Below, one piece after another: positions 10,570 to 29,030 of a stretch of 41,802 nt of DNA. The stretch's first letter is position 1. Every line of letters starts with the position of its first letter. A program made the position numbers and the translations under genes. This DNA is from a virus. The notes beneath the pieces were generated by a model. The model did no database searches, was not told the origin of the DNA, and saw only the letters and a program-made list of their open reading frames with translations. The stretch is from IMG/VR virus record IMGVR_UViG_3300026549_000013, positions 1 to 41,802 of that record; one strand, written 5' to 3'.

Positions 10570-10572
10570 TAT

Positions 10573-11832: not shown

Positions 11833-11833
11833 C

Positions 11834-12478: not shown

Positions 12479-13794
12479 GAAAGAAAGTGCTTGAGAAAAG
12501 GCTGCAGAGACTGCAGCAGAGAAGACAGACTCTTTTCACACGTGGTCAGGAGTCTCAGGACGTCGCAGAAGTAAGAGCGATCAATCAGCAGATCGCAGAG
12601 CTGGATGAAGATATCAGAGACATCCAGGATGAGATCGATGCGATCGACGCAGACGAAGCAGCAGAAAACAGATCTGCGCAGAATCCCGTAAGCGTAAGCG
12701 ATCCGGTCCCTGCCAATGCACAGTCCGTCAACGGCGGCATCGTCGGCAGCTTCACACAGAACGGCGCACAGCCCCAGCAGAGATCTGAGGAAGCACCGCT
12801 TGAGTCCCTGGAATACAGACGCGCATTCATGGCATATGTGATGCGCGGAACAGCTATTCCGGACACATATCGCCCGGCGATCGACGAAGCAACTGCTGAG
12901 CTGAGACAGACAGCGATCAACACAGCCGACACAGGCGTAGCGATCCCGATCACCGTCATGAACGAAGTGATCAACACGGTAAGAAAGAGATACGGCAACC
13001 TTTACAGCAAAGTCAGAAAGCTGAACGTACCCGGTGGCGTACGTATCCCGATCGGATCCCTTCAGGCGACCTTCAAGTGGATCGGTGAGTCCACAGTCAG
13101 CCCCAGACAGAAGACTGACAAGCTGGGGGTTGTGTCATTCAACTATAACGCAGCAGAGATCAGACTGGCGCAGACTTTCCTGTCCAGAGTCCTGACTCTT
13201 TCCGCGTTTGAAGCAAAGCTGACAGAAGTTATTGCGGTAGCATATCTGCAGGCAATGGATCAGGGAATCGTCAATGGTTCCGGCGTTGGAAGCATGCTGG
13301 GCATCCTGAATGATGCACGCGTGACCAATACGATCACCATGACAGCCGCACAGCTCAACAACTGGAAGGCATGGCGCAAAGACTTCTTCGCGAAGCTTCC
13401 GCTGGGATACAGAGCAGGCGAATTCATTTTCCCGCTTTCCACAGTCGAGTCATATCTGGAGACTATGTCCGATGACAACAATAACCCGATCTTCCGCCAG
13501 GCGACCGGCCTTGAAGTCAATGACGGCGATGTCAGAAATCCCAATGGCCGCTTCTTCGGCCGTGATATCAGCCTGGTCGAGCCTGATGTGCTGCCTGACT
13601 TCGACACGGCACAGGCCGGTGATGTAGTAGGCATCTTCTGGCAGCCCAATGAATACGCGATCAACGAGAACTTCGGATTCGCGATGCGCAAATACTTCGA
13701 CGAAGAAACGAACGAGTGGGTCGACAAGGCGCTGACCGTAGTCGACGGCAAGGTCCTGAATCCCACAGGATTCTACAAGATCATCAAAGGATAA
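12475..13794 (+). CDS. Major capsid protein (HK97 fold) with N-terminal coiled-coil delta domain
   Basis: 439 aa immediately after the protease; charged coiled-coil N-terminus. Confidence 0.85.
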   Translation: MRKKVLEKRLQRLQQRRQTLFTRGQESQDVAEVRAINQQIAELDEDIRDIQDEIDAIDADEAAENRSAQNPVSVSDPVPANAQSVNGGIVGSFTQNGAQPQQRSEEAPLESLEYRRAFMAYVMRGTAIPDTYRPAIDEATAELRQTAINTADTGVAIPITVMNEVINTVRKRYGNLYSKVRKLNVPGGVRIPIGSLQATFKWIGESTVSPRQKTDKLGVVSFNYNAAEIRLAQTFLSRVLTLSAFEAKLTEVIAVAYLQAMDQGIVNGSGVGSMLGILNDARVTNTITMTAAQLNNWKAWRKDFFAKLPLGYRAGEFIFPLSTVESYLETMSDDNNNPIFRQATGLEVNDGDVRNPNGRFFGRDISLVEPDVLPDFDTAQAGDVVGIFWQPNEYAINENFGFAMRKYFDEETNEWVDKALTVVDGKVLNPTGFYKIIKG

Positions 13795-13805
13795 GGGGGT
13801 ACATC

Positions 13806-14096
13806 ATGCCTACAAATCTGGACGGACTGAAAGCTATTTACGAAGCACTGGGCGGCCAGGCGGATGATGTGACCAGCGTAGACACAAATGCAGACATGCT
13901 GATGAAGATCGCGGCCCTGATCGCGGCAGGCGCACTGCCGCCCGTCACCGCGGCCGACAACGGCAAAGTGCTGATGGTCAAGAATGGTAAATGGGAGCCT
14001 GGCATCATTCCGGATGAACTTCCGGAAGTAACTGTGGAAGACAACGGCAAGATCCTGAAGGTAGTTAACGCCGAATGGGCTGTCGCCACCAATTGA
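13806..14096 (+). CDS. Small head-associated protein (96 aa) with a duplicated DNGK-L-V-N-W motif
   Basis: ATG 13806 after GGGGG. PPVTAADNGKVLMVKNGKWEPG and PEVTVEDNGKILKVVNAEWAV form an internal repeat. Position is directly after the capsid gene. Confidence 0.55.
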   Translation: MPTNLDGLKAIYEALGGQADDVTSVDTNADMLMKIAALIAAGALPPVTAADNGKVLMVKNGKWEPGIIPDELPEVTVEDNGKILKVVNAEWAVATN

Positions 14097-14108
14097 GAGG
14101 AGTAAATC

Positions 14109-14468
14109 ATGATCAATAAAGACAGAATCGTTCCGGTGATGAGAAGTGATCTTCTCACGCTTCTGGGAACAATGATGAAGCTGGCAGGAACAACTGTGAC
14201 AGCTGTGGAAGCTGCGGATGTAGCAACATTCAATATGACAAGCGGAAGCGGAAACGTGATCGCCAATGAGCCGGTCAAAACATTCAATTTTGCTTCCGCA
14301 GTAACGGCAGCAGTCGTTTATTTTATCCCCGACTATGACTATCAGGGATTCAGCATTAACGGCACAGCTGTAACGGCAGCGGGCGTTGAGGTCGTTCCGG
14401 ACGGATGCACGCTGTACAAAGCGACGCTTGCAAGCGGCGCGGTGACGATCGCGAAGGTGGGATTCTGA
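14109..14468 (+). CDS. Hypothetical structural protein (119 aa)
   Basis: ORF track; position in the head module. Confidence 0.55.
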   Translation: MINKDRIVPVMRSDLLTLLGTMMKLAGTTVTAVEAADVATFNMTSGSGNVIANEPVKTFNFASAVTAAVVYFIPDYDYQGFSINGTAVTAAGVEVVPDGCTLYKATLASGAVTIAKVGF

Positions 14469-14477
14469 GGTAAGGCA

Positions 14478-14720
14478 ATGGAAGTGACGCTTGAAAACGT
14501 GATGACCGCGATGGGCATCACAGGGGATTACCAGACGGACACGATCCGTCCGTATTTTGATGAAGTCATCGACTTTCTGAAAGATTCGGGCGTCGCAGAA
14601 GGCAATATCACGCTGGGACTGGTGACGCGCGGAACATCAGACCTTTGGAATTATGGCGGCGGCGACGGAAAGCTGTCGCCTTACTTCTACCAGCGGGCCG
14701 CGCAGCTGGCGTACAAGTGA
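14478..14720 (+). CDS. Head-tail connector (gp6-like)
   Basis: Size, position and general pattern only. Confidence 0.5.
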   Translation: MEVTLENVMTAMGITGDYQTDTIRPYFDEVIDFLKDSGVAEGNITLGLVTRGTSDLWNYGGGDGKLSPYFYQRAAQLAYK

Positions 14721-14727
14721 GGTAAAA

Positions 14728-15075
14728 ATGCGTAGAAGATTCGTTCCATCGACGCCTTTCTCGACGCCGGTGATGCTGATGATCCCGACATACACGAAAG
14801 TCAAAGGCGTTGACACAAAGACATTCACGGACGAAGAAAGGATTAATTGCTCTTTCAAGTCATTCGGCGGGACCGAACAGACGACCAATGATCTGTACAC
14901 AGTCATTGATACGGCATACGTGGAAACATGGTATAGGCCCGACATCAAGTCGGACTGCAGGATCCGCGTTATGGAGACGGGGAAGGTCTATGAGATCCTG
15001 GGAGAAGTCGAGAATATTGACATGCGAAATCAATTTGCAAAATTCAAGGTCCGCGCCGTGAAGGGGGGCGCCTGA
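14728..15075 (+). CDS. Head closure / head-tail adaptor (SPP1 gp16 / HK97 gp9-like)
   Basis: ATG 14728. C-terminal RIRVMETGKVYEILGEVENIDMRNQFAKFKV is typical of the family. Confidence 0.65.
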   Translation: MRRRFVPSTPFSTPVMLMIPTYTKVKGVDTKTFTDEERINCSFKSFGGTEQTTNDLYTVIDTAYVETWYRPDIKSDCRIRVMETGKVYEILGEVENIDMRNQFAKFKVRAVKGGA

Positions 15076-15076
15076 T

Positions 15077-15517
15077 GTGGCGAAAAGGAAGAACAGCCTG
15101 TCGATCGATTTCAGCAATTTCGCGGAATACGCGGAACGCCTGGACGAACTGAACGCGGACCTGAAAGAGATCTTCCAGGACGCAATGGAACAGGCTGCAG
15201 AGACAGTCGAATGGGACATCATGGATGCGCTTGCAGATGCGAATCTGCCTGCGCTGGGTAAATATTCACAGGGAGCGACAGAAGCATCGGTGATCAGGGA
15301 CGCCAAAGTCCAATGGCAGGGGTCTGTTGGAGAAATCCCGATCGGATTCGACAAGACGAAGCCGGGCGCCGGCGGATGGCTGATCACCGGGACGCCTAAG
15401 ATGCGTCCAGACTATAAGCTGGAAGACATTTTCAGAAGACGGAAGTACGAAAAGAAGATCATAAAGCAGATCGAAGAACATCTGCAGGAAGAGATCGATG
15501 AAAGGTTAGGTGGATGA
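15077..15517 (+). CDS. HK97 gp10-like tail-completion protein
   Basis: GTG start after AAGGGGGG; position and size. Confidence 0.5.
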   Translation: MAKRKNSLSIDFSNFAEYAERLDELNADLKEIFQDAMEQAAETVEWDIMDALADANLPALGKYSQGATEASVIRDAKVQWQGSVGEIPIGFDKTKPGAGGWLITGTPKMRPDYKLEDIFRRRKYEKKIIKQIEEHLQEEIDERLGG

Positions 15518-15852
15518 TGGAAGATAATTTGATCGAGTTATTGGAGTCATTAGGATATCCAGCGAGAAGACAGGGAAGCATGCCGGAAAGTTATCCGGAT
15601 GCTTTTTTTACTTTCTGGAACACGGATTCACCGGACCATGCACATTATGACAACAAGTCATACGGAACGGCATGGGCCTTCAATGTTTTCTTCTATGCGA
15701 CGGATCCGGCGCTGGTATACCAGATGATCAGCGCCGCCCGTGATCTGCTGAAGGATCACGGATGGGTCGTCCCATCCAAAGGATTCGACGTGGCAAGCGA
15801 CGAACCGACACACACAGGCAGAGCGATTACCGCTCAATATTTGGAAGTATAA
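15514..15852 (+). CDS. Tail terminator-like protein
   Basis: Last gene before the major tail protein; call is positional. Confidence 0.45.
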   Translation: MMEDNLIELLESLGYPARRQGSMPESYPDAFFTFWNTDSPDHAHYDNKSYGTAWAFNVFFYATDPALVYQMISAARDLLKDHGWVVPSKGFDVASDEPTHTGRAITAQYLEV

Positions 15853-15865
15853 GGAGATTCAAAAA

Positions 15866-16468
15866 ATGCCTAAGACATATTTTGAGTATCGCGGCGTATC
15901 AAACGCCGTATATGCAGAGATCACATCAGACACAGCGGAAGAATTTGTGACAGGCGTAGTCAAAGATCTGACTGGTGTGTCTGAGATCGGCAAGACCACA
16001 GACAGCGCCAATGAGACACATTATTATGACAACCTTCCTGCGATCGTTATCGATTCCGTGGGATCTGATGAGATCACGATAAACGCATCCGGCATCCCGC
16101 TTGATGTCCTTGCAGACATCACAGGACAGTATTACGACGAACAGACCGGAATGATGGTAGAGCAGGAATCCACACCAAAGTATTTTGCCTTCGGCTACAT
16201 CACAGACAAGACCGACGGAACGAAGGTCCTTGTTTGGAGGTTGAAAGGAAAATTCTCGATACCAGGCACGACATCCGCGACAAAGGACGCCGGAACAGAT
16301 GCGAATGGTCAGGAACTGACATACACAGGCATCTCTACAGTCCACAAGTTCACGAAGACAGGAAAGCCGGCACGCGCGATCAATATCGACACATCAGTCA
16401 ACAAGACGATGACCGACGCGACATTCTTCGAAAAGGTCAACACGCCCGACACGATCAAAGCATCCTGA
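15866..16468 (+). CDS. Major tail protein (phi13-family-like)
   Basis: 200 aa between the connector genes and the G/GT chaperone, followed by a strong terminator. Confidence 0.8.
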   Translation: MPKTYFEYRGVSNAVYAEITSDTAEEFVTGVVKDLTGVSEIGKTTDSANETHYYDNLPAIVIDSVGSDEITINASGIPLDVLADITGQYYDEQTGMMVEQESTPKYFAFGYITDKTDGTKVLVWRLKGKFSIPGTTSATKDAGTDANGQELTYTGISTVHKFTKTGKPARAINIDTSVNKTMTDATFFEKVNTPDTIKAS

Positions 16469-16487
16469 TCAGACTGATGAACGCACG

Positions 16488-16521
16488 AATCCCCGACGCT
16501 ATACAGTGTCGGGGATTTTTT
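16488..16521 (+). terminator. Rho-independent terminator after the major tail protein gene
   Basis: aatccccgac / gtcggggatt 10-bp stem, 10-nt loop, then TTTTTT. Confidence 0.8.
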
Positions 16522-16539
16522 GACAGAAAGGATTAAAGC

Positions 16540-16857
16540 ATGAAGATCAACGTCTATGACGACAACGACAACATCGTTAAAGTAGCGGAAGCTAAAGTGA
16601 TCGACCTTAAATTCGGAACGATCCGGTCACTGATGGAGCTGCTGAACATCGACAGCGTAGAAGACACAGGGGAGCTTCTAAAGACGGTATACGGCGCATG
16701 GGACCAGATCGTCGAGATCCTGGACAAATGCTTCCCGACCATGGAATACGGCGACTGGGAGAACGTAAAGCTTAAAGAGCTTGTGCCTGTCCTGGTTGAG
16801 ATTCTAAAGTTCTCTTTCAGTGAGATTCTGAAAGTTCCTAAAGATTCAAAAAACTGA
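16540..16857 (+). CDS. Tail assembly chaperone G
   Basis: 105-aa acidic protein directly upstream of the tape measure gene. Confidence 0.75.
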   Translation: MKINVYDDNDNIVKVAEAKVIDLKFGTIRSLMELLNIDSVEDTGELLKTVYGAWDQIVEILDKCFPTMEYGDWENVKLKELVPVLVEILKFSFSEILKVPKDSKN

Positions 16858-17078
16858 GCGACGGCGATGATGACACGCCGTTTCACAAATTGTTATTCCA
16901 GATCAACTATCAGCTGTGTAAAGAATTCACAGGCCTGACGCCTTTTGCAGTAGACGATCGGAGATACGCAGATGTCATCAAGTTATATGCAGAAGTCATT
17001 GACCTGCATGCGGAAGTGAAAAAAGCACAGGATCCAAATCGCGTGATCAGACGACGCGCGGGGGATGACTGGTTTTAA
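16540..17078 (+). CDS. Tail assembly chaperone G-T fusion via a -1 programmed frameshift (about 179 aa)
   Basis: The -1 frame is open from 16842 to 17078. The slippery heptamer sits just before the G stop codon. Confidence 0.7.
16848..16854 (+). promoter_or_regulatory. -1 frameshift slippery heptamer A_AAA_AAC
   Basis: Zero-frame codons are tca aaa aac tga. A 6-bp hairpin (16861-16866 / 16876-16881) starts 6 nt downstream. Confidence 0.7.
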
Positions 17079-17089
17079 AGGATAGAAAA

Positions 17090-20000
17090 ATGGCAGACAC
17101 GCAAAGCACGACCAAATTCCGGGCGGACATATCGCAGCTGAAAAAAGAGATGCAGGCGGCAAGTCGCGCTGTGCGTCTTGCGTCTTCGGAATTCAAGGCA
17201 GCGACTGCCGGAATGGACGATTGGAGTTCATCAGCTGATGGACTTCAGGCGAAACTCAAACAATTAAATAAAACGCTGGAAGGACAGCAAAAGATCCTTG
17301 AACTGCAAAAGAAGGAACTGGCGGCGACGGTGGCCGAATATGGCGAAAACTCAGCCGCGGCCGACAGGGTAAGGATCGCAATCAATAACCAGGAAGCGCA
17401 GATCGCCAAAACAGAAGCACAGCTGAAGAAGTATGGCGACGCTTTAGGCGATACAGCGGACGACACGCTGGATCTGGACAACGCGCTGGAAGAGACGGTG
17501 GATTCGTCTGCGAGAGCATCCGAAGGATTCACGGTGATGAAAGGCATCCTGTCGAATCTGGCTGCGGACGCGATAAAGAAAGTCGTTTCTGGACTGAAAG
17601 ACATCGCAAAAGAAACATTCAAAGTCGGGGCAGACTATGAATCAGAAATGTCCAAAGTCGAAGCGATATCCGGCGCGACATCGAAAGAGATGGACAGGCT
17701 GTCAGAAAAAGCAAAAGAGATGGGCAGCAGCACCATCTTCACGGCCCAGGAATCGGCGGAAGCCTTCGAATACATGGCAATGGCCGGATGGAAGACATCC
17801 GACATGCTTAACGGCATCGAAGGAATCATGAACCTGGCGGCCGCTTCCGGATCCGATCTTGCGTCAGCATCAGACATCGTCACAGATGCGCTGACAGCCA
17901 TGGGATATTCGGCGAAGGATTCAGGACGGCTTGCAGACGTCATGGCCGCGGCATCGTCTAACGCGAATACGAACGTCGAGCTGATGGGCGCGACGTTTAA
18001 ATATGTTGCGCCGATTGTTGGCGCGCTGGGCTACAGCATGGAAGATGCTGCAGTCGCGATCGGCCTGATGGCCAATGCCGGCATCAAAGGCGAAAAGTCA
18101 GGCACTGCGCTTCGGTCGATCCTGACAAGACTGTCAGCGCCGCCCAAAGAATGCGCGACAGAGATGGAACGCCTGGGACTGTCGCTGACAGATGCTGACG
18201 GCAACATGAAAGACATGTCTGAGGTCATCGGAGATCTCAGAAAAGCTTTCAGGGGCCTGGACAAAGCGGAACAGACATCCGCAGCGAAGCACATCGCAGG
18301 ACAGGAAGCAATGTCCGGTCTGCTTGCGATCGTCAACGCGGCGCCGGATGACTTCGACAAGCTGACATCAGCTGTCGAGAATTCAACAGGCGCAGCCGCT
18401 GAGATGGCCGCGACCATGAACGACAATGTGAACGGCCAGCTGACGCTTCTGCAGTCCAATATCCAGGGCAAGATGATTGACGTCTTTGAAAAGGCGTCAC
18501 CGGAGATCAAGCGGTCGATCCGTGAGATCTCGCGGACGATCGACACGCTGGATACGAAAGAGATCGCGGAAGACGTCGGGAAAGTAGTTAAAGACGTAGC
18601 AGATCTGTTCGCGTATGTGGCGGACAATTCTGAAGCGGTAAAATCCGGTGCAAAAGGCGTCGGCGCGGCGCTGGGAACAATATTCGTGACGAACAAAGCC
18701 GCCAATTTTGTTTCCACAGCAAAGACAATCGCACCGGTGATCACAAAGCTGGGAACAGAGGTCGGAATCCTGAAGACGACGACAGACGCTGCAGGCGCCG
18801 CACAGGTAGCGCTGAATGCTGCATGGTTCGCATCGCCGGCGACATGGGTAGTGGCTGGTGTCGTGGCGCTGGGCGCCGCGATGGTGACAATGCGGAAACG
18901 GTCCGAAGAAGCGATGGAAGCTGAATACGGACTGTCAGACGCGGAAAAAGAAGCGATAGACACAGCATCGCTTCTGAAGCATGAATATAACAACCTGAAA
19001 GACGCGCGTGACGAAGCGATCAGCAGCACATACGCTGAATTCGGCTACATGCGCGAGCTGAAGGACGAATATAACGGCCTGATCGACGCAAATGGAGACG
19101 TCAAAGAAGGATATGAAGACCGCGCGGACTTCATCCTGAATCAGCTGGCGGAAGCGATGGGCGTTGAGCGGTCAGAGATCGAAGAGACGATCGACAAGAA
19201 CGGCAAGCTGGGCGAATCGATCGACAATTTGATCCTGAAAAAGCAGGCAGAAGCAACGCTTGACGCGACAAAGGACGCTTATACAGAAGCGATCCAGAAG
19301 CGCCAGGAAGCACTGAACAACTATGTAGAGAATCAGAAGACATACACGGACGCGGAAAACGCATACAAACAGAGTCTGGAAGAATCAGGCGATGTTTTAG
19401 GCCGCTATCAGCAGATGCTGGAAACAGCACCGTCTACGGCGTCGGATTACTACTGGGCCAACCAGGAAGTGATCAAAAGCCAGCAGACGATGAAGGAAGC
19501 GATGGAGTCCGCGGAACAGGGCCTGCGCGATTCTGAATCCGCTTATGTAGGATACAGCTCGACGATCCAGAACTGGGAAGCACTTTCCCAGGCATCCGCG
19601 ACGGGAGCGGAAGACGCGATCAGCACGGCATTGACCAATATCCAGAACAATATGGTCACGGCCGAAACAGGCACACGCGACACGCTGGAAACACAGCTGA
19701 GAAACTTTGAAAACAACTACGACAATATGAAGGCAGCCGTCGAAAGCGGCATGCCGAATGTTACACAGGCGCAGGTAGACGAAGCCGGAAAGCTAGTGGA
19801 AGCGGCACGCGCAGAACTGGATAAGCTCGACAGCCAGGCGGCAGAATCGGGCCAGACAGCCGGCACAGACTACGCGGAAGGCGTAGGATCGGCGGAAGGA
19901 TCCGCATCAGAAGCAGGCGAAAAAGTCGCAAGCGCGGCGGCGTCCGGTGCAAAGCGCGCAGACGGCGACAACAAGAAAGCCGGTGAAACGACCGGCAAGA

Positions 20001-21850
20001 AATACGCAGAAGGTGTTTCCGGACAGTCGAAGAAAGCACAGTCAGCAGGAACGACGATCGGACAGGCATCCGCAAAAGGCGCGAACGCAGCAGGCGGGCA
20101 GATGAACGCAGCAGGCCAATACACGGGCCTGCAGTTCGCAGGCGGAGTCAATGCGAAAACAGGATCTGCAAATTCTGCAGGATCTAACATAGCATCAAGC
20201 GCGAAGCGCGGAACTGAGTCGGTCAGCACATATTCAAGCGGTGAGAATTTTGGTCAGGGCTTTATCAATGGCATCGGGTCAATGGTACAGTCCGCATGGA
20301 GCAAAGCATATAACCTTGCAAGACAGGCATGGGCTGGACTGAGAAAAGGACAGGAAGAAGGATCCCCTTCAAAGCTGACAGCCAGGTCCGGACGATTCTT
20401 CACGCAGGGCTTTATCAATGGAATCGTTTCCTTGGAAGGTAAGCTTGTAAAGACAGTTGTCAGCATGGCAAAGACAGCCGTCAAGGCGCTTTCGACAGCA
20501 TCCAGATACAACATCGAAGAAGTCGGAAGCATGGCAAGCCGGGAATTCGCGGATGCGATCGCGAACGACTCTGAGTACATGATCAATAAGATCCAGTACA
20601 AGAATCAGAAAAAGATCGCAGAATTTGATTCGGCGATAGCGAAACTGAAAGCGCAGAGCAAGCAGAAGGCATCACAGATCCAGGCAGCAAGCGACAAGAA
20701 AGTCGCGAAGCTGCAGGAAAAGCGGGACAAGACGTCTGACAAAAATCAGAAAAACCGCTTGAAGAAACAGATCGATGCTGAAAAAGCAAGCGCGAAAAAG
20801 CTGATCAAGGCAAACGAAGCCAAATATCAGAAACTCATCAAGACACAGGAAAAATACAAGACGGCATATCAGACGGCCAGCAGCTCGATGATCAGTGAAT
20901 TCCAGAAAGCAATGCAGCGCTATGAAGAAAGCGCGCGGAACTTGGTCGACAACGCGATCACGGGCATCACTGACCGATATACGACAGCATATGACGACCT
21001 TACAGCAAAGCAGGAAGAGCTGACGAACAAACTGCTGGAAGTCGGAAACACTTTCGACGTAAGCGGTGCGGGAGTCATGACGATCAATGACCTGCAGAAG
21101 CAGACGCAGCAGATCAGGGATTATTCGGACAGGCTGGCACGGATCCGCGAGAAGGTATCCAAAGATCTTTTCAATGAGATCACGACATTCAATGTCAAGG
21201 AAGGCGCCGCATACATCGACAGGCTCCTGTCGATGAGCGCGGAAGACCTGGCTGCATATAACGACGCTTACACAGCGAAGCTGGAAGCGGCGCGCGAAGC
21301 AAGCGACAGCATCTATCAGGCAGACTTCGAAGACCTTGGTAAGACTTACCAGTCAGAGATCGAAGAAGCGCTTGCAGGCATCAACGACCAGATGAAAGAC
21401 CTGGGCGAACAGGCGATGCGCGGATTCGTGGACGGACTGACGAAGAACACGGATTACATGGATGCGAATGTCAAAACATTCGTCAATGCGATGGTCAAGA
21501 CATTCAAAGAAAAATTGCAGATACACAGTCCTTCAAGGCTGACATTCGGACTGGGAGCGCTGACCGGTGAAGGATTTGACGATGGACTGCTGTCCATGGT
21601 CAGACGGATCCAGAACACGGTAAAGAAGATCACAGGTGATATCGCGTCGCCGATCAGCGGACTGGGAGCAGATCTTCCGGGCATCCGGCAGTCGGTGAAC
21701 GGTTATCCTGTGGCAGCAGGCGCGAGAACATCGAACGTAGTGAATAACTACAACCTGGTCCAGAACAATACGTCGCCGAAGGCATTGAGCGCGCTTGAAA
21801 CATATCAGGCACGCAGACAGCAGATCGCCATGGTCAGGGCGTTCGCGTAA
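17090..21850 (+). CDS. Tape measure protein (1586 aa)
   Basis: Size; coiled-coil and Ala/Gly-rich stretches; repeated GFINGI and SPS(K/R)L motifs; position after G/GT. Confidence 0.9.
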   Translation: MADTQSTTKFRADISQLKKEMQAASRAVRLASSEFKAATAGMDDWSSSADGLQAKLKQLNKTLEGQQKILELQKKELAATVAEYGENSAAADRVRIAINNQEAQIAKTEAQLKKYGDALGDTADDTLDLDNALEETVDSSARASEGFTVMKGILSNLAADAIKKVVSGLKDIAKETFKVGADYESEMSKVEAISGATSKEMDRLSEKAKEMGSSTIFTAQESAEAFEYMAMAGWKTSDMLNGIEGIMNLAAASGSDLASASDIVTDALTAMGYSAKDSGRLADVMAAASSNANTNVELMGATFKYVAPIVGALGYSMEDAAVAIGLMANAGIKGEKSGTALRSILTRLSAPPKECATEMERLGLSLTDADGNMKDMSEVIGDLRKAFRGLDKAEQTSAAKHIAGQEAMSGLLAIVNAAPDDFDKLTSAVENSTGAAAEMAATMNDNVNGQLTLLQSNIQGKMIDVFEKASPEIKRSIREISRTIDTLDTKEIAEDVGKVVKDVADLFAYVADNSEAVKSGAKGVGAALGTIFVTNKAANFVSTAKTIAPVITKLGTEVGILKTTTDAAGAAQVALNAAWFASPATWVVAGVVALGAAMVTMRKRSEEAMEAEYGLSDAEKEAIDTASLLKHEYNNLKDARDEAISSTYAEFGYMRELKDEYNGLIDANGDVKEGYEDRADFILNQLAEAMGVERSEIEETIDKNGKLGESIDNLILKKQAEATLDATKDAYTEAIQKRQEALNNYVENQKTYTDAENAYKQSLEESGDVLGRYQQMLETAPSTASDYYWANQEVIKSQQTMKEAMESAEQGLRDSESAYVGYSSTIQNWEALSQASATGAEDAISTALTNIQNNMVTAETGTRDTLETQLRNFENNYDNMKAAVESGMPNVTQAQVDEAGKLVEAARAELDKLDSQAAESGQTAGTDYAEGVGSAEGSASEAGEKVASAAASGAKRADGDNKKAGETTGKKYAEGVSGQSKKAQSAGTTIGQASAKGANAAGGQMNAAGQYTGLQFAGGVNAKTGSANSAGSNIASSAKRGTESVSTYSSGENFGQGFINGIGSMVQSAWSKAYNLARQAWAGLRKGQEEGSPSKLTARSGRFFTQGFINGIVSLEGKLVKTVVSMAKTAVKALSTASRYNIEEVGSMASREFADAIANDSEYMINKIQYKNQKKIAEFDSAIAKLKAQSKQKASQIQAASDKKVAKLQEKRDKTSDKNQKNRLKKQIDAEKASAKKLIKANEAKYQKLIKTQEKYKTAYQTASSSMISEFQKAMQRYEESARNLVDNAITGITDRYTTAYDDLTAKQEELTNKLLEVGNTFDVSGAGVMTINDLQKQTQQIRDYSDRLARIREKVSKDLFNEITTFNVKEGAAYIDRLLSMSAEDLAAYNDAYTAKLEAAREASDSIYQADFEDLGKTYQSEIEEALAGINDQMKDLGEQAMRGFVDGLTKNTDYMDANVKTFVNAMVKTFKEKLQIHSPSRLTFGLGALTGEGFDDGLLSMVRRIQNTVKKITGDIASPISGLGADLPGIRQSVNGYPVAAGARTSNVVNNYNLVQNNTSPKALSALETYQARRQQIAMVRAFA

Positions 21851-21861
21851 GGGGGCCTGAT

Positions 21862-22710
21862 ATGTTTACATTAATAGCAAGGAATCAATACGGACAGCAG
21901 TTGGAGCTGACACATAACGATGCGTACAGCATCAAGTCGATCGACGGGCTGGATCCGCCGGAAGCAGTCATCAACACGACGCACAACGCGGGATTAGATG
22001 GCAGCGTCTACAACAGCGCATATATGAGTGATCGTGTCATCACGATCACTCTTGCGATTGAAGGACCGGCGGAAGAAAACAGGATCAATCTTTACAAATA
22101 TTTCAAAAGTAAATTCCCTGTCAGAATCTACTACAGAAACGCGACAAGGAATGTCTACATCGACGGATACACGCGCGTAGTTGCAATTTCGTTTTTTGAC
22201 ATCAAGCAGGTCGCGCAGATCACGATCTTTTGCCCGCAGCCCAACTTCAATGAGGTCATGGCTGACGTGCAGGATATGTCGAGCATCGAAAACTTATTTG
22301 AATTCCCGTTTTCGATCGAAGCCGCGGGGATTCCTTTTTCGGAGATCATCGCAAACACGGAAAAGTCGATCAAGAACGACGGCGACCTGGAAACAGGCGT
22401 GCAAATCAGCATCAGGGCGACCGGAACAGTCGTCAATCCGAAGATCTTCAACGTGGAAACAGGCGACAGCATGATCCTGGACATGACGCTGGCAGCGGGC
22501 GACCTGATCAGCATCGACACAAGGACCGGAAGCAAAGCGGTGACGCTGACAAGCGACGGAGTGACGACAAGCGTCGTCGGAAAACTCAGATACGGGTCAG
22601 ACTGGTTCAGCCTGCAGCCGGGCGACAACATCTTCACGATCGCCGCGGATTCAGGCGCGGAATACATGAAGGCTGTGTTCACGGTGATCGGGCAGTTTGA
22701 GGGCGTTTGA
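21862..22710 (+). CDS. Distal tail protein (Dit-like)
   Basis: 282 aa immediately after the tape measure gene. Confidence 0.7.
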   Translation: MFTLIARNQYGQQLELTHNDAYSIKSIDGLDPPEAVINTTHNAGLDGSVYNSAYMSDRVITITLAIEGPAEENRINLYKYFKSKFPVRIYYRNATRNVYIDGYTRVVAISFFDIKQVAQITIFCPQPNFNEVMADVQDMSSIENLFEFPFSIEAAGIPFSEIIANTEKSIKNDGDLETGVQISIRATGTVVNPKIFNVETGDSMILDMTLAAGDLISIDTRTGSKAVTLTSDGVTTSVVGKLRYGSDWFSLQPGDNIFTIAADSGAEYMKAVFTVIGQFEGV

Positions 22711-22712
22711 CT

Positions 22713-23777
22713 ATGGATATCTATGTATTAAACGGGATGCAGAAAGAAGACATAGTCGAAGACTATGAAAGCATCATCTGGAACATGCAGTTCTTCGGAA
22801 ACGGCGACTTCCAGATGGTCGTCCATGGAACAGCCAAAAACGTGAATCTGCTGACGCGCGGCAAATATCTTGTCAGGGACTTCGATGTTGTAGAGGATGG
22901 CTTCCGGAACGTCATGAAGATAGAAGGGCGGAAGATCATCTGGGACGCGGAAAAAGGATGGCTTATTACGCTGACCGGAAAGGGCCTGAAGCACATCACC
23001 GGACAGCGGATCGTATGGCAGCAGACGAATCTTTCCGGAACTGTGGAAGACGGAATCAGGAAGGTGATCACCGAAAACATTATTTCGCCGGACTTGCCAG
23101 AACGCCAGATAGCGAATTTTATACTGGCAGATTCTGTGGGGATCACAGAAACGTGGGAAACACAGTTATTCGGCCAGAACATCGCTGAATGGCTTGAAGA
23201 TGTGGGCAAAACATACGGGATCGGCTGGGATGTGTCGATTAAAAACGGGAAATTCGTTTTTGAACTGATCAAAGGCACTGACAGATCTGTGGATCAGTCA
23301 GCTGTGGATCCGGTCGTTTTTTCGCCTGAATATGACAACCTGGCGGAAGCAAGCCTGGACGAAAACGGCGAAGACTACTTCAACGCGGCGCTGATCGGCG
23401 GAGAAGGCGAAGGCATCGACCAAAGGACGGCGACAGTTGGAACAGCTTCGGGCCTGGACAGGATCGAAAGATACATTGATGGTGATTCCGTCAGCAGTAA
23501 CGGCGAGATCATCACAGAAGAGCAATATGAAGAGCTGCTGAAGACATACGGATACGAACAGCTGGCAGCGGCCGCGAGTGCGATCAAATACGAAGGCAAG
23601 ACGATTGACAATAAGATGTTTGTATTGAACCGTGATTACTTTCTGGGCGACATAGTCACGATCAAGAACAAATACGGGATCAATTCGACATGCCGGATCA
23701 CCGAATTGATCTTCGCGATCGATGAAAATGGCCAAAGTATCGTCCCGACATTTGAAGCAGTGGAAGGAGCAAGTTAA
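22713..23777 (+). CDS. Tail-associated/baseplate hub protein (Tal-like, Sipho_Gp37-like)
   Basis: Position after Dit. The N-terminus IYVLNG...IVEDYESIIWNMQFFGNGDFQMVV resembles the Gp37-like family. ATG 22713 follows GAGGG; the track starts at TTG 22707. Confidence 0.6.
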   Translation: MDIYVLNGMQKEDIVEDYESIIWNMQFFGNGDFQMVVHGTAKNVNLLTRGKYLVRDFDVVEDGFRNVMKIEGRKIIWDAEKGWLITLTGKGLKHITGQRIVWQQTNLSGTVEDGIRKVITENIISPDLPERQIANFILADSVGITETWETQLFGQNIAEWLEDVGKTYGIGWDVSIKNGKFVFELIKGTDRSVDQSAVDPVVFSPEYDNLAEASLDENGEDYFNAALIGGEGEGIDQRTATVGTASGLDRIERYIDGDSVSSNGEIITEEQYEELLKTYGYEQLAAAASAIKYEGKTIDNKMFVLNRDYFLGDIVTIKNKYGINSTCRITELIFAIDENGQSIVPTFEAVEGAS

Positions 23778-24721
23778 TGGCTATATCATATGGATTTTTC
23801 AACTCCATCAACCAGGACCGCACATATAACGCTGATCAGATGTCAGAGTATTTTGACGGCCTTGTATCGAATGGAGTCTATGAGAGCGTGGGGAGCGCGA
23901 TGCAGGTCACGGCCGGCGAAGGCCTGGCTGTCAATGTCCAGTCAGGCCGGGCGATCATTGACTGCAAATGGATCAAGAACGACGCTGCGCAGGCCATCAC
24001 GCTGACGACAGCACATGTGCTACTGCCCAGATACACGGCAATCGTGATCAGGCTGGACAGGGGCAGCCGGTCGATCTCGATTGTGGCAAAAGATGGCACA
24101 CCGGCATCCAATCCGGAAAAGCCGTCAATGACTGATGACGGCCAGATTACAGAGCTGTGCCTGGCGTATGTATATGTCGGCGCCAATGCATCGACGATCA
24201 CGCAGGCCAATATCACGGATATGAGGTCAAGCGATCTGTGCGGATGGGTGACAGGCGTCGTGCAGCAGGTGGACACATCACAGTTGTTCGCACAGTATCA
24301 GGCAGCATTCGAACAGAACTACGCGCAGCAGCTGGCGTGGCAGCGGTCGATCCAGACAGAATTCAACGAATGGTTCGCGGCGCTTACACAGCAGCTGTCA
24401 GTCAATACATACATCCAGAGATATCAGAAAGTTGTAACGTTATCAACAGGCACATCGACGCCGATCGAGCTGGACATGACAGGATACAGCTATTCGGACG
24501 GCGATGTCATTGATGTATTTATTAACGGTCTGATCGGTATAGAGGGGGGTGATTACAGCCTGACAATAGCAAATGGAGTCGTAACAGTAACGCCAATGGC
24601 ATTGAAAGTCGGAACGGTTATCGTTATCAACGCGACTAAGTCAAAGATCGGATCGATCGTCCTGGAGACTAATAACGGCGCCGCGCTAGTAACGAACGAA
24701 GACGAATATATCTCAGCCTAG
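23777..24721 (+). CDS. Tail/baseplate structural protein (314 aa)
   Basis: TAATG overlap with the upstream gene; position. Confidence 0.55.
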   Translation: MAISYGFFNSINQDRTYNADQMSEYFDGLVSNGVYESVGSAMQVTAGEGLAVNVQSGRAIIDCKWIKNDAAQAITLTTAHVLLPRYTAIVIRLDRGSRSISIVAKDGTPASNPEKPSMTDDGQITELCLAYVYVGANASTITQANITDMRSSDLCGWVTGVVQQVDTSQLFAQYQAAFEQNYAQQLAWQRSIQTEFNEWFAALTQQLSVNTYIQRYQKVVTLSTGTSTPIELDMTGYSYSDGDVIDVFINGLIGIEGGDYSLTIANGVVTVTPMALKVGTVIVINATKSKIGSIVLETNNGAALVTNEDEYISA

Positions 24722-24752
24722 AAGGAGGATCGGAATGTAAGGAGAAAATACA

Positions 24753-25415
24753 ATGCCTAAGACATATTTTGAGTATCGCGGCGTTTCTAACGCCGTATAT
24801 GCAGAGATCACATCTGATACAGCGGAAGAATTTGTGACAGGCGCAGTCAAAGATCTGACTGGTGTGTCTGAGATCGGAAAGACGACGGAAAGCGCACACG
24901 AAGTGCATTTTTACGACAACATAGCGGCGATCGTGGTCGACTCAGTGGGGGCTGATGAAATAACGATCAATACATCCGGCATCCCGCTTGACGTCCTTGC
25001 GGACATCACAGGTCAGTTCTACGACGAAGAAAATGGCATGCTTGTAGAGCAGGAACCCACACCGAAGTATTTTGCCTTCGGGTACATCACAGACAAGACA
25101 GACGGAACGAAGGTCCTTGTTTGGAGACTGAAAGGCAAATTCTCGATCCCAGGCACAACGTCCGCGACGAAGGACGACGGAACAGATGCAAATGGTCAGG
25201 AACTGACATATACTGGCATCTCGACGATCTACAAATTCATGAGGACCGGAAAGCAGTCGAGCGCGATCAACGTCGATACATCTGTCAACAAGATAACGAC
25301 GGCGGAAAGCTTCTTCGCGGAAGTAAATACGCCGGACACAATCCTGCCGATCATCCTGGCAACGGATGACGACGCGATAATTGTAACTAGTGAAGATTTT
25401 GAAATCCTTGTATAA
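24753..25415 (+). CDS. Second major-tail-protein paralogue (220 aa) with a distinct C-terminal extension
   Basis: Roughly 85 percent aa and nt identity, by hand alignment, to 15866-16468 over about 197 residues. It then diverges into LPIILATDDDAIIVTSEDFEILV. Confidence 0.8.
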   Translation: MPKTYFEYRGVSNAVYAEITSDTAEEFVTGAVKDLTGVSEIGKTTESAHEVHFYDNIAAIVVDSVGADEITINTSGIPLDVLADITGQFYDEENGMLVEQEPTPKYFAFGYITDKTDGTKVLVWRLKGKFSIPGTTSATKDDGTDANGQELTYTGISTIYKFMRTGKQSSAINVDTSVNKITTAESFFAEVNTPDTILPIILATDDDAIIVTSEDFEILV

Positions 25416-25432
25416 AGAAAGGAAATCGAACA

Positions 25433-27244
25433 ATGGACAACACAGAGAGAAGAAGAATCGTTAATCTGCCGCAGGCCACAGAAGTGGGCGACGACATGAA
25501 TTTCGTGACGGACAGCACGAACGGATCCGGAACAAGAAAGCTCCCTTATGCAATGCTTAGAAGCGCGATCTGCCAGGCATCCGCGCTGAACATGGCGCCT
25601 GCATACAGCAATGCAGCGACATACAGCGTGGGCGATCTTGTGGCATATAGCGGACAGCTGTATATGTGCAACACTGCGATCGAGCAGGCTGAAAACTGGA
25701 CGCCGGCACATTGGACGGCGGTCGACATGAGCGAGGTGATCGACAGCGTCGAACAGCGAGTGGCAGAGATCGAAAACGCGGAAGGTCTGCACAGATACGG
25801 AGTTTCCGGCATCGGACAGGCAGCATCACAGCTGACAAGGATCTGGGACGCAGTTGGAATGACGGCCCAGGTGGGAACGGATGGAAACAACGCGAACGTA
25901 GTCAATAACTTTGACGACGTCGCGCCTTTTAATAGAAGAAAATGCGTCGGTCACTGGACAGTGAGAGACGGCCGCGCGCACTTCGTGGTTGAAGCATATT
26001 ACGGAGATGAAAATTACGCAGAAGACGGCACAATGGGCGACTATGTCGCAGTCGAATGCCCGCGTGCATTTTACTACATGAAGGACGGAATTCTGGGCGT
26101 ATCTGCACATCATTATGCAGGCTGGAAGCCTTTCGACATCTTCTGCCATAACCACAACGCGGAAGAGACTATGGAATATGTTTACCTGCCCGCATATGCG
26201 CTGGCGACGAAGAACGGGCATGCTGTGTCACTTCCTGATCTGGACAATGAACAGGGAGACTATGCAGGACTGTTCACAACGGCAAGAACTTATGACAACG
26301 CAGATGTGGCGGGCCTTGCGATGATCCAGCCGGCAGCAGTCGAATTCTACGAATGGGCGCTGCAGACAGTCGAATTCGCACAGCAGGTTCCGACAGCAGT
26401 GATGAAGGGATGCCTGTCGCTCAGATCTGACAATGCGGACACAGTAGTATTCCAGGACACGACACATGTACTGACAAACAACTACTATGCAAGCCGCGTA
26501 GTCGGTGAGTATATCTGCATTTATGACGGGACAGCTGATCACACGAAGGCGTCTTATAAGGCGACACACAAGATCCTGTCGATCGTGAGATGCGATGAAA
26601 ACGGAAACGCTGACGCTTCAGGAACACATCAGCTGATCGAAGTCCAGGACCTGGGCAAAGGCTACTTCGAATATGATACATCCACGACATACAACCTGGC
26701 GGCGCGTCCGTACAGAACAGGTGCGTGCAACGGCGTTTCGACGCCTTCCGGATCACCTGTGTCAAACACATCAGGATATTATCCGATGAAGTACAGATGG
26801 CGTGAAAACACACATGGCAACCAGTATCAGACATACGTGGACCTGTTTAACAAGCGCGTCGGGACCGGCGACGATGATTACAAACTTGAATGGTATTACC
26901 TGCCTGATCCGTCAAAGATCACGACGCCTGGAAACAACATTTCGCTTCCCGGCGAAAATTATGAAAAACTGGACATCGAAACAAGCCACGAAGACTATCT
27001 GAACGGATGGATCAAGAGCAAGCAGTATTCTGCTGATTATCCGGACATCTGGATTCCTGTACAGGTGACGGACGGCAGCGCGTCAACATATGCTGCAGTT
27101 TACGCCTACCTCGTTAATTCGAACGCGGTCCGTGCCGTCCGCTTCGGCGGGCATTGGTACAACGGCAACGTGTACCTGAATGCGAATAACGCGCCTTCGT
27201 TTGCGTACGCGAATTATGGTGGCGCCCTTTGCTTCGCCCAGTGA
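25433..27244 (+). CDS. Tail fibre / receptor-binding protein, DGR target (603 aa)
   Basis: Last tail gene. Contains a CBM5/12-like YSVGDLVAYSGQLYMCNTAI...NWTPAHWTAV segment. The C-terminus RFGGHWYNGNVYLNANNAPSFAYANYGGALCFAQ is typical of C-type-lectin-fold DGR variable regions. Confidence 0.85.
   Translation: MDNTERRRIVNLPQATEVGDDMNFVTDSTNGSGTRKLPYAMLRSAICQASALNMAPAYSNAATYSVGDLVAYSGQLYMCNTAIEQAENWTPAHWTAVDMSEVIDSVEQRVAEIENAEGLHRYGVSGIGQAASQLTRIWDAVGMTAQVGTDGNNANVVNNFDDVAPFNRRKCVGHWTVRDGRAHFVVEAYYGDENYAEDGTMGDYVAVECPRAFYYMKDGILGVSAHHYAGWKPFDIFCHNHNAEETMEYVYLPAYALATKNGHAVSLPDLDNEQGDYAGLFTTARTYDNADVAGLAMIQPAAVEFYEWALQTVEFAQQVPTAVMKGCLSLRSDNADTVVFQDTTHVLTNNYYASRVVGEYICIYDGTADHTKASYKATHKILSIVRCDENGNADASGTHQLIEVQDLGKGYFEYDTSTTYNLAARPYRTGACNGVSTPSGSPVSNTSGYYPMKYRWRENTHGNQYQTYVDLFNKRVGTGDDDYKLEWYYLPDPSKITTPGNNISLPGENYEKLDIETSHEDYLNGWIKSKQYSADYPDIWIPVQVTDGSASTYAAVYAYLVNSNAVRAVRFGGHWYNGNVYLNANNAPSFAYANYGGALCFAQ
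27095..27231 (+). repeat. DGR variable repeat (VR)
   Basis: Ungapped match to 27324-27460 with 7 mismatches, each at a TR adenine. Confidence 0.9.
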
Positions 27245-27323: not shown

Positions 27324-27460
27324 GCAGTTTACGCCAACCTCGTTAATTCGAACGCGGTCCGTGCCGTCCGCTTCGGCGGGAATTGGAACAACGGCAACGT
27401 GAACCTGAATGCGAATAACGCGCCTTCGAATGCGAACGCGAATTATGGTGGCGCCCTTTG
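27324..27460 (+). repeat. DGR template repeat (TR)
   Basis: Non-coding copy of VR, rich in AAC/AAT (14 in the VR frame). The last 14 nt, ggtggcgccctttg, contain no A. Confidence 0.9.
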
Positions 27461-27628: not shown

Positions 27629-28813
27629 ATGAAACGTATCAGAGATACATGGAAAGTGGCTACAGATGAAGACAACGCGTTCGCGGCGATCGTGGACGGG
27701 ACAAAGTACAAACGCGGGAAAAGAGAGGTACAGAAGCTTCTTTACGACAAAGAAAAAGTGAAAGCGCATCCGGAACTGTATCACAAGATCGATCCGGACA
27801 AAGGTAAGATATATGCCAAAAAGCTATGCTGGATCTTGAAGAAAAAGAAGTGGAGACACAAATCACCACGGCACAGAAGGCAGTTCTGCAGGAATCGCGC
27901 TTCCAGCAAAGGAAAGTGGAGAGATCTTTACATCCCGTGCTTGGACGATCACATAGTGGCACACATGCTGATGCAGGCAAATATGAAAGCGTTCACAAAA
28001 GGGATGCATCCGTATTGCTGCGGATCTGTGCCGGAAAGAGGAATCGAATTTCTTAGAAAGACGATAACTCACTGGATCAGGAATGATCGACAGCTGCGCT
28101 ACTTCGTGAAGCTGGATATAAGGAAGTTTTTCGACAATATAGACAGAAACAAGCTGAAAGCGGTACTAAGGACGAAGATCAAGGACAAAGCTTCGCTGTG
28201 GGCGTTCGACCAGATCATAGACGCAGCGCCTTCGGCCTGTCCAGTGGGATTCTACACATCGCCATGGTTTGCAAATCTGTATCTGGAAAAGCTTGACTGG
28301 TACATCGAGCAAAATCTTTTCAAGATCAGACGCGGGAAGCGGATCAAATATGTAACACATCATCTCAGATACGTTGATGACATCCTGCTGTTCGGAACGA
28401 GCAAGACCGATCTGAAGAAAGCAGTCAAACAGATAAAGGAATATCTCAAAATTAATTACGGATTAGAGATAAAGCCATGCTGGGAGATCAAGCGGATCGG
28501 AAAGCACGACAAGGACAGCGGGAAGTTGATAAAAGGAACATATTGGCTGGACATTGGCGGATACAAATTCTGCCAGGACGCGACGATCCTTAGAGACGGC
28601 ATATATCTGTCAGCCAAAAGACTGGCAAGAAAGATGTATAAAGCAGGATATTACACAGTGCATCAGGCGCAGTCGATAATATCAAGGATCGGATGGGCGA
28701 AGCATAGCGACGCGCGAAGGTTCATGCAGGAATGCATCCTGCCATATGTCAATATCAAAGAAGCAAGGAGAGTAATCAGCTATGTGGGCAAGATCCAAAA
28801 ACAGCGAAGCTAA
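27629..28813 (+). CDS. DGR reverse transcriptase (394 aa)
   Basis: RT motifs read in the translation: RDLYIPCLDDHIVAH, YFVKLDIRKFFDNI, GFYTSPWFANLYL, RYVDDILLFG, LDIGGYKF. Confidence 0.9.
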   Translation: MKRIRDTWKVATDEDNAFAAIVDGTKYKRGKREVQKLLYDKEKVKAHPELYHKIDPDKGKIYAKKLCWILKKKKWRHKSPRHRRQFCRNRASSKGKWRDLYIPCLDDHIVAHMLMQANMKAFTKGMHPYCCGSVPERGIEFLRKTITHWIRNDRQLRYFVKLDIRKFFDNIDRNKLKAVLRTKIKDKASLWAFDQIIDAAPSACPVGFYTSPWFANLYLEKLDWYIEQNLFKIRRGKRIKYVTHHLRYVDDILLFGTSKTDLKKAVKQIKEYLKINYGLEIKPCWEIKRIGKHDKDSGKLIKGTYWLDIGGYKFCQDATILRDGIYLSAKRLARKMYKAGYYTVHQAQSIISRIGWAKHSDARRFMQECILPYVNIKEARRVISYVGKIQKQRS

Positions 28814-29030
28814 AAAGCCGGAAAAGATGGAGAGATCCGGAAGCCAGGTCATCATCAGAAAAGACTTTCTGTTTGTGCAGGCGACAGAAGATGAAAACGC
28901 GCACTGGGAATACAGCGAATGGCAGATGTCAGAAGCAGAATATGAGATCTACGAGAATTTCGAAGATCGAATGAAGGAACAGGAAGATGCACTTGTTGAG
29001 CTGGCAGGAATGATTGCGGAAGGAGAATAA
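28782..29030 (+). CDS. Small acidic protein (82 aa)
   Basis: AGGAG 11 nt upstream of ATG 28782, which overlaps the RT 3' end by 32 nt. Alternative start at ATG 28827. Confidence 0.5.
   Translation: MWARSKNSEAKKPEKMERSGSQVIIRKDFLFVQATEDENAHWEYSEWQMSEAEYEIYENFEDRMKEQEDALVELAGMIAEGE

Follow-up and report, generated by a model that had tools for sequence, protein, structure and literature searches.

A second tail-tube gene with a baseplate-type C-terminal peptide, a candidate docking adaptor for the diversified fibre of a temperate siphophage

Why would a siphophage keep a second copy of its major tail protein gene among its receptor-binding genes, directly ahead of a fibre diversified by a diversity-generating retroelement (DGR)? 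The question is raised by IMG/VR record IMGVR_UViG_3300026549_000013, positions 1 to 41802, the whole stretch of DNA analysed here (41,802 nt, hereafter the window). The window is a complete temperate siphophage genome of ~41.7 kb, terminally redundant and circularly assembled, because positions 1-127 equal 41676-41802 at 100% over 127 bp. It encodes a canonical major tail protein (MTP1) and, at 24753-25415, a second one (MTP2). We found that MTP2 is real, conserved and under purifying selection, and on balance the sequence comparisons favour reading it as a functional, neofunctionalised chimera, in which a tube core (residues 1-197) carries a ~23-residue acidic peptide of the type that ends the upstream baseplate protein (p314), and which would serve as a fibre-docking adaptor. 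The features concerned are as follows.

15850-16456, plus strand: first copy of the repeat, with the TAA stop of the upstream 112-aa gene, the ribosome-binding site (RBS) and MTP1 codons 1-197 (self-blastn)
15866-16468, plus strand: MTP1, canonical major tail (tube) protein, 200 aa (TIGR01603, phrog_88)
23777-24721, plus strand: p314, predicted peripheral baseplate protein, 314 aa (AlphaFold2 model, Foldseek, BFVD, PHROG)
24650-24718, plus strand: C-terminal tail of p314, GSIVLETNNGAALVTNEDEYISA (tails of 120 homologues; adjacency to the fibre module)
24722-24752, plus strand: junction scar, the p314-MTP2 spacer (comparison with relatives' spacers and the MTP1 leader)
24753-25343, plus strand: MTP2 core, codons 1-197, tail-tube fold (BLASTP, AlphaFold2, Foldseek)
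25344-25415, plus strand: MTP2 tail, LPIILATDDDAIIVTSEDFEILV, and stop codon (homology to the p314-family tail)
25433-27244, plus strand: DGR-diversified fibre, 603 aa (hidden Markov model (HMM) of the N-terminal module; Pfam CBM_5_12; phrog_5302 tail protein)

The original prediction, made from the sequence alone, described MTP2 (220 aa) as collinear with MTP1, with roughly 31 differences in the first ~197 residues and about 85 percent nucleotide identity over about 585 bp, the two genes forming a dispersed direct repeat 8.9 kb apart. These figures agree closely with ours: BLASTP gave 166/197 identities, 92% positives and 0 gaps, codons 1-197 match at 497/591 nucleotides (84.1%), and self-blastn aligned 15850-16456 with 24738-25343 at 83.7% over 607 nt, with the two starts 8,887 nt apart. 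Terminal redundancy and the repeat pair of the DGR aside, this is by far the longest internal repeat that self-blastn found. The repeat opens precisely with the TAA stop of the gene that precedes MTP1, and the RBS lies inside it; on both details the prediction was silent. Identity along the repeat is a mosaic, with 94% over nt 1-135, 77% over 136-285, 90% over 286-471 and 72.5% over 472-591. The C-termini differ as had been noted, MTP1 ending in ...TPDTIKAS and MTP2 in ...TPDTI followed by the 23 residues of LPIILATDDDAIIVTSEDFEILV in place of KAS.

Both copies belong to the tail-tube family. TIGR01603 (phi13-family major tail protein) scored 65.5 bits for MTP1 and 57.8 for MTP2 against a curated cut-off of 35.2, and phrog_88 ('major tail protein') was matched by both at 1e-28 to 9e-28. 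Pfam-A gave no match for MTP1, MTP2 or p314, and PF04630 is present in some MTP homologues; single-sequence searches of PDB with MTP2 and p314 found nothing, and a profile search gave one weak match to a major tail protein and none for p314. The AlphaFold2 model of MTP2 (predicted TM-score 0.73) has a confident beta-sandwich and helix 79-86, with 46-66, 135-147 and 201-220 disordered. Foldseek matched it to the tube proteins of YSD1, JBD30, Bxb1, SPR, lambda and SPP1, with probability ~1.0 for YSD1, JBD30, Bxb1 and SPR but low TM-scores of 0.37-0.49.

The location of MTP2 is non-canonical. The tail module runs MTP1, chaperone gene (16540), tape-measure gene (17090-21850), Dit (21862), Sipho_Gp37/Tal-like gene (22707), p314 (23777-24721), MTP2 (24753-25415), 603-aa fibre, reverse transcriptase (RT), and holin and endolysin genes, so the canonical slot is that of MTP1 and MTP2 follows Dit, Gp37/Tal and p314, right before the fibre. 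As a separate open reading frame (ORF) with its own RBS 8,887 nt downstream, MTP2 is no programmed-frameshift product of MTP1.

Is the second copy genuine? The prediction had named an assembly chimera as the first thing that would undo it, and this candidate was rejected, as the MTP2 junctions recur in independent assemblies that differ in sample and assembler. Clustered at 90% identity, MTP2 has 73 members, and the exact window sequence is found on 25 contigs (JGI, Logan, ENA). Twelve fetched loci besides the window hold MTP2, flanked in 12/12 by a p314-type gene upstream and the fibre downstream, and the RT comes next in all that extend far enough; lysis and integrase modules vary. Pseudogenisation in relatives, raised as part of a second objection, was not seen: the frame is intact in every locus, and by the Nei-Gojobori method the ratio of non-synonymous to synonymous substitution rates (dN/dS) is 0.05 within MTP2 (at dS 0.17) and 0.06 in its core, compared with 0.08 within MTP1. 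The 23 tail codons hold 6 segregating sites, all synonymous (pairwise differences 70 synonymous and 0 non-synonymous), and a single conservative change in the tail occurs in only 2 of the 15 cluster members listed.

A survey of related phages, which the prediction had proposed, was drawn from metagenomes because cultured-phage records (50,697; blastn and tblastn) gave no close relative; two MTP copies were found in 0/46 matches there. We scored 52 related loci, in each of which an MTP lies upstream and the sequence runs for 1.5 kb or more past a p314 homologue. MTP1 stands in its standard place ahead of the chaperone and tape-measure genes in 52/52; 43/52 have a single MTP and 9/52 have two, all nine in the window's clade. 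The MTP family is a small one: 1.84 billion representative proteins yield 484 clusters of it.

The peptide that MTP2 gained leads to its neighbour. In the AlphaFold2 model, p314 starts with a beta domain, continues through a long helix (168-206) into a beta-sandwich and ends in an acidic tail. Foldseek matched it best to the p2 baseplate (2x53_A, probability 1.0) and the phi812 baseplate, its BFVD matches are annotated 'Receptor Binding Protein' and its PHROG matches are structural and baseplate families. From its match to the lactococcal p2 receptor-binding protein (RBP) and to RBP-annotated proteins, p314 is predicted to be a trimeric peripheral baseplate protein with a p2 RBP-like fold. Among 120 p314 homologues, the core ends in K-S-(K/R)-I-G and is followed in most by an acidic ~22-residue tail, which is absent in some. 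In six-frame translation, the window holds two such motifs and no more, the end of p314, ...KIGSIVLETNNGAALVTNEDEYISA, and the MTP2 tail.

The closest counterpart of the MTP2 tail was found in L094 (ENA ERZ920195 scaffold_409), a relative 94.8% identical over window positions 8557-24419, whose p314 tail, GWIALETNAGALVVTNDDAEISL, aligns with it 23:23. By blastn, L094 16771-17100 matches window 25381-25716, that is, p314 tail, spacer and fibre start against MTP2 tail, spacer and fibre start, and because of this alignment the MTP2 tail can be read as a p314-type 3' end. An HMM of the p314 tail matched MTP2 only among ~360 MTP-family proteins, and a p314-type tail occurred on 0 other MTPs among the best 150 family representatives or ~210 close homologues. 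On these comparisons the 23-residue tail is homologous to the C-terminal peptide of p314. Similarity between MTP2 and p314 does not extend beyond these last 23 residues, and the shoulder domain and trimerising helix of p314 are not in MTP2. The extension begins directly after the tube core, at ...TPDTI, the point at which relatives add Big_2-like or Flg_new domains; with added domains beginning straight after ...TPDT(I/V), the MTP C-terminus is an exposed fusion site. The 23 residues of MTP2 have pLDDT <50 and no domain match, and are not a folded Ig, FN3 or CBM domain. p314-type tails are acidic (mean -3.4, 95% negative). Charge complementarity between tail and fibre was dropped as evidence, as the fibre N-terminal modules are not net basic.

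How the chimera arose can be read at its edges. The p314-MTP2 spacer reads TAG-AAGGAGG-ATCGGA-ATG-TAA-GGAGA-AAATACA-ATG, with a relic RBS, AAGGAGG (24722-24728), an ATG (24735-24737) fused to a TAA (24738-24740) and then the MTP leader GGAGA-AAATACA. Its first half is laid out as stop, RBS and ATG, like the p314-to-fibre spacers of L094, L002 and L012, and in its second half TAA-GGAGA matches the stop of gp112, the 112-aa gene before MTP1, and the MTP1 leader. At the 3' joint, GATC is common to MTP (...ACGATC) and p314 (...AAGATC). These scars are the remnant expected of an 8.9-kb tandem duplication, with the TAA ahead of the MTP leader and the fibre ATG as its end points, and of a later in-frame deletion that would have joined, in the second copy, MTP codon 197 to about codon 291 of p314 at the shared GATC. 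We regard this origin as well supported by the junction sequences. The ATG-TAA start-stop mini-ORF, which lies behind a strong RBS 12 nt before the MTP2 start, is kept in all MTP2 loci checked (L005, L098, L099 and L101), and this scar could also tune MTP2 translation via re-initiation.

Acquisition of MTP2 from a distant phage was rejected. By neighbour-joining, MTP2 is sister to its own clade's MTP1 in every alignment partition, on a long branch, every outgroup is nearer to MTP1 than to MTP2, and the diagnostic residues are unique rather than outgroup-shared. Three MTP1-type sequences closest to MTP2 (P0002, P0003 and P0007) were likewise rejected as a donor lineage; each is a hybrid from a short contig in which p314 and the chaperone gene are brought together. 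Divergence between the copies is uneven, with dS 0.6-0.8 overall, 0.25 over codons 1-45, 1.5 over 46-95, 0.44 over 96-157 and 1.3 over 158-197. Gene conversion is ongoing, because individual genomes hold patches of the other copy's states: the window MTP1 carries MTP2 states at 21, 26 and 28, and some MTP2 variants carry MTP1 states at 89-94.

The core has been changed selectively. All 51 columns invariant across 86 family members are kept in MTP2, and its 30 diagnostic differences cluster at 21-28, 46-67, 89-94 and 159-190. Residues found only in MTP2 replace ones conserved at 94-100% (H160Y, T163M, K164R and A169S), and at Y53F a tyrosine conserved at 98% gives way to a phenylalanine found in only 2/83 others. 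Residues 46-67 and 159-190 are not erased by conversion in any long-contig copy. In the JBD30 tube, the hinge loop that connects core strands two and three slots in between a pair of C-terminal loops on the next disc (PMC11445458). Judging by this description and the low pLDDT of 46-66, we infer that 46-67 is the predicted inter-disc hinge loop and, by analogy, that the unconverted clusters 46-67 and 159-190 may be two faces of the disc-to-disc interface. After the duplication MTP2 would have changed mainly in these two regions and then come under strong purifying selection.

A further difference between the copies concerns expression, for which one more feature is needed.

16489-16522, plus strand: terminator-like hairpin and U-tract directly 3' of MTP1, outside the duplication (RNA fold)

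This hairpin was missed by a consensus terminator scan and was folded directly; it has -26 kcal/mol and z = -5.3, with 0/200 shuffles as stable. No comparable terminator follows MTP2, and the MTP2-fibre gap is 17 nt. From the terminator after MTP1 and its lack after MTP2, the second copy is probably made at baseplate-gene rather than tube levels.

What the tail peptide does is best approached from the fibre that follows it and from the DGR elements downstream.

27095-27231, plus strand: DGR variable repeat (VR; 7 mismatches to the template repeat, all at its adenines)
27324-27460, plus strand: DGR template repeat (TR; pairing with VR)
27629-28813, plus strand: DGR reverse transcriptase (Pfam RVT_1, 1e-19; phrog_1423)

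With 7 VR/TR mismatches, all at TR adenines, and an adjacent RT, the fibre is a genuine DGR target. It has an N-terminal docking module (residues 1-45), a CBM5/12-like motif (57-92) and the VR at its C-terminus. The CBM5/12-like carbohydrate-binding motif lies at 25601-25708 in the conserved N-terminal part of the fibre, and by eye also occurs in the N-termini of the L094 GDPD fibre and the L002 fibre. No avd-like match was found in the DGR cassette; an 82-aa ORF at 28782-29030 overlaps the 3' end of the RT, is kept beside the RT in L109-L113 and has no Pfam match. The fibre bodies of L109-L113 are homologous to that of the window's DGR fibre; their N-termini differ, and no MTP lies near them.

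The tie between MTP2 and the DGR fibre, proposed from their adjacency, proved close. MTP2 always adjoins the 603-aa DGR fibre, and the 95%-identical L094 has a GDPD fibre and lacks both MTP2 and a DGR. There, 15861-18552 holds a different p314 C-terminal domain and a 648-aa GDPD-domain fibre that replaces MTP2 and the DGR cassette; p314 is directly followed by this fibre, whose N-terminus is clearly homologous to that of the window fibre. An exchange of the receptor-binding module separates L094 from the window, and its breakpoint falls within p314 near residue 214. A swappable module would thus comprise the p314 C-domain, MTP2, the DGR fibre, TR and RT.

An HMM of the fibre N-terminal module (~45 residues), run against all ORFs of ~105 loci, extended this link. 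A few exceptions aside, its matches are confined to ORFs directly downstream of tail-bearing proteins. The tail is carried by p314 in L002, L009, L010, L012, L013, L015, L017, L094 and L095, by the Gp37/Tal protein in L007 and by MTP2 in the window clade, where the HMM matches the ORF after MTP2. In relatives, a fibre with this module nearly always comes straight after the peptide. In L007 (8349-9986), a distant relative, Gp37/Tal ends in ...IITETGDDIITEDGVDIITEV and is followed by a 165-aa fibre with the N-terminal module; this tail is acidic and 8-residue-periodic (IITETGDD IITEDGVD IITEV). The p314 of L007 is tail-less, and the socket would therefore sit on another carrier. In several loci with a tail-less p314 (L019-L024, L014, L016, L059 and L060), the next ORF is, by eye, membrane-protein-like and no fibre.

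Taken together, these results suggest that the p314-type tail is a socket for the N-terminal module of the next-encoded fibre. If the tail has this role in the p314 family, MTP2 would offer a second socket set on a tube-fold scaffold, and with a baseplate-derived peptide on a tube copy right before a hypervariable fibre, the tube protein has probably been given a new use, as one more place where the DGR fibre can be mounted. This added site could take the form of a specialised ring adjoining Dit, or of MTP2 subunits built into the tube. Of the three roles guessed at in the original prediction, 'adaptor for the DGR target' thereby gains specific support, as the tail copies a peptide that precedes fibres of the same type in relatives; 'fibre shaft' does not hold, as the whole tube fold and the family-invariant residues are kept and no fibrous repeats are present. 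A more general and clearly more tentative proposal is that the acidic tail and the fibre N-terminal module form a portable plug-and-socket, used on p314, Gp37/Tal and the tube protein, which here might mount DGR fibres on a tube ring or along the tube.

Several observations weigh against a docking adaptor. The p314 and MTP2 tails share 56% nucleotide identity, below even the least-converted parts of the core (72-77%), and the tail may therefore derive from an imported fibre module rather than from the resident p314. p314 retains its own tail though MTP2 now follows it, which leaves two sockets for one fibre gene, and six tails far apart on a hexameric ring sit awkwardly with a trimeric fibre. 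The proposed role of 159-190 as inter-disc acceptor loops comes by analogy. Some loci break the tail-to-fibre rule: the p314 ahead of the fibre module in L033 and L038 ends in KIGSSTSGTT, in L009 a second fibre follows a tail-less protein, and L113 is a third case. It was also partly derived from ORFs picked downstream of p314 and is not fully independent, so we take it as a strong lead and no proof.

Among the alternatives, the one that survives best, itself the third of the predicted roles, sees in MTP2 simply another tube subunit, co-polymerised with MTP1 over the whole length of the phage tail, with the acidic tail as a small surface decoration or adhesin and no socket. Family-invariant residues and the polymerisation-type disordered loops are kept, MTP2 equals MTP1 in RBS strength, tube decorations usually sit at the C-terminus in the MTP family and in SPP1 and 936 phages, and actinophage clusters with two-MTP genomes exist. 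We nevertheless consider it unlikely, since it leaves unexplained why the tail copies that of p314, the strict linkage to the DGR fibre together with the absence from the near-identical L094, and the placement of the gene after an attenuating terminator among low-copy baseplate genes, and since a 23-residue peptide is no folded adhesin domain.

We give still less credence to MTP2 as an assembly factor outside the virion, either a scaffold or chaperone that holds the fibre N-terminus or a competitor of p314 until the baseplate is built. Its gene directly precedes that of the fibre, the peptide is shared with p314, and selection indicates function and not location; known fibre chaperones, however, are encoded after their fibre and have no tube fold, and a full tube core kept under such constraint is hard to explain if the tail alone matters. 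A decoy or escape variant against a tail-tube-sensing host defence (DSR2-type) is very improbable: Foldseek matches include DSR2 complexes with the SPR tube protein, and unique substitutions fall at otherwise invariant surface-loop residues 160-170, but MTP1 is still made and would still trigger the sensor, the tail, the position and the DGR linkage are left unexplained, and no defence or anti-defence signal was found. That MTP2 is an assembly chimera or a decaying, functionless recombination relic is barely credible: short contigs with hybrid MTP genes show that the repeat confuses assemblers or recombines, but the recurrent junctions, the 73-member cluster, the intact frames and the wholly synonymous variation in the tail speak against it.

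These hybrid genes, on short low-coverage contigs (L106 2184-2780, L107 and L108 432-1028), are MTP2-like from the 5' end to about residue 67 and MTP1-like in the 3' part, with p314 upstream and the chaperone gene downstream. They are not the deletion of the region between the copies that the prediction had foreseen, and are either assembler chimeras formed via the repeat or real reciprocal recombinants of that deletion.

A docking adaptor built on a tube core has partial precedents. Tube-fold paralogues are known in the tail tip, as gp48 and gp54 of T4. Tail-tip paralogues are ancient, highly diverged and fixed in position, whereas MTP2 is recent (84% identical) and its origin is legible in junction scars. 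The Dit N-terminal domain and the Hcp-like rings of Ceduovirus place a tube-like hexameric ring by the last MTP disc as a platform for peripheral host-binding domains (PMC12474359; PMC11445458). In SPP1 (gp17.1/gp17.1*) and 936 phages (TpeX), a second tube form carries a surface-exposed, host-binding add-on right after the tube core (PMC6669499), and this long form results from a programmed frameshift in a single MTP gene that adds a folded Ig or CBM domain. The phage studied here likewise has two versions of the tube subunit, with an add-on immediately after the core, but MTP2 comes from a gene of its own within the receptor-binding module, 8.9 kb from MTP1, with a core that has diverged by 16% and a baseplate-derived peptide of 23 residues as the add-on. 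Actinobacteriophage clusters AU, AM, BI, DJ and CC have duplicated MTP genes, for example gp18 and gp23 of Giantsbane (bioRxiv 10.1101/2020.01.10.891226). They share with our phage two conserved MTP genes per siphophage genome; unlike MTP2, their copies have no described fusion to a fibre-docking peptide or link to a DGR, and from the gene numbers they apparently lie close together in the tail block. What is new relative to frameshift-extended, duplicated and tail-tip MTPs is a separate, relocated gene that is a chimera of a core and a putative docking peptide and is tied to a DGR fibre.

On the side of the fibre, p314 has a lactococcal p2 RBP-like fold and, as in p2 ORF18 shoulder-type baseplates, a peripheral trimeric protein would hand on a separately encoded fibre. 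Docking of an adaptor to an RBP is also known from the Gram-positive siphophage baseplate of TP901-1 (BppU/BppL). Unlike in p2 and TP901-1, the putative docking peptide is found here on three carriers, p314, Gp37/Tal and MTP. The pairing of acidic tail and fibre module was not met in the literature on related topics, in which no search was aimed at the motif itself. Phage DGR cassettes of the BPP-1 Mtd type diversify tail-fibre tips. The cassette described here resembles them in having the VR at the 3' end of the fibre gene, the TR downstream, adenine-specific mismatches and an adjacent RT; unlike them, it has no avd-like gene identified and travels with a tube-protein paralogue.

MTP2 is an unusually clear natural example of how an adhesion device may be invented, with an abundant, self-assembling tube scaffold duplicated, equipped with a 23-residue candidate docking peptide and then fixed by strong selection alongside a hypervariable fibre. 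If the proposed origin is correct, the emergence of a new virion component through duplication and deletion is legible here down to single bases. If the pairing of peptide and fibre holds, the peptide would be a minimal tag that could be transferred to virion proteins of choice so that receptor-binding fibres attach to them, and it would be useful for host-range engineering in gut Lachnospiraceae-type phages. DGR targets could then be displayed at more than one tail site, which would change how we think about avidity and host-range evolution in abundant temperate gut phages, and a true plug-and-socket would mean a siphophage tube bearing receptor fibres that are encoded separately and diversify continuously. 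If the case is a more ordinary one, MTP2 would be one further MTP variant with a C-terminal decoration.

Some observations stand apart from these questions. A partial match, the only one in the species-genome collection, hints at Lachnospiraceae as host but is no proof; it is a 4.7-kb contig of an Acetatifactor sp. metagenome-assembled genome (L008, JAZQGM010000049.1) whose MTP (271 aa) has a C-terminal domain. L089, a phage that is near-identical in other respects, has an insertion sequence-type transposase (DDE_Tnp_1, 514 aa; 10834-12378, minus strand) between MTP1 and the chaperone gene. The portal gene of an otherwise intact relative (L092, 2735-3986) is split into ORFs of 274 and 134 aa, by a frameshift or an assembly error. 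Within the window, a 71-nt direct repeat (4055-4125 and 4412-4482, 79% identity) lies inside a 321-aa ORF at 3896-4861.

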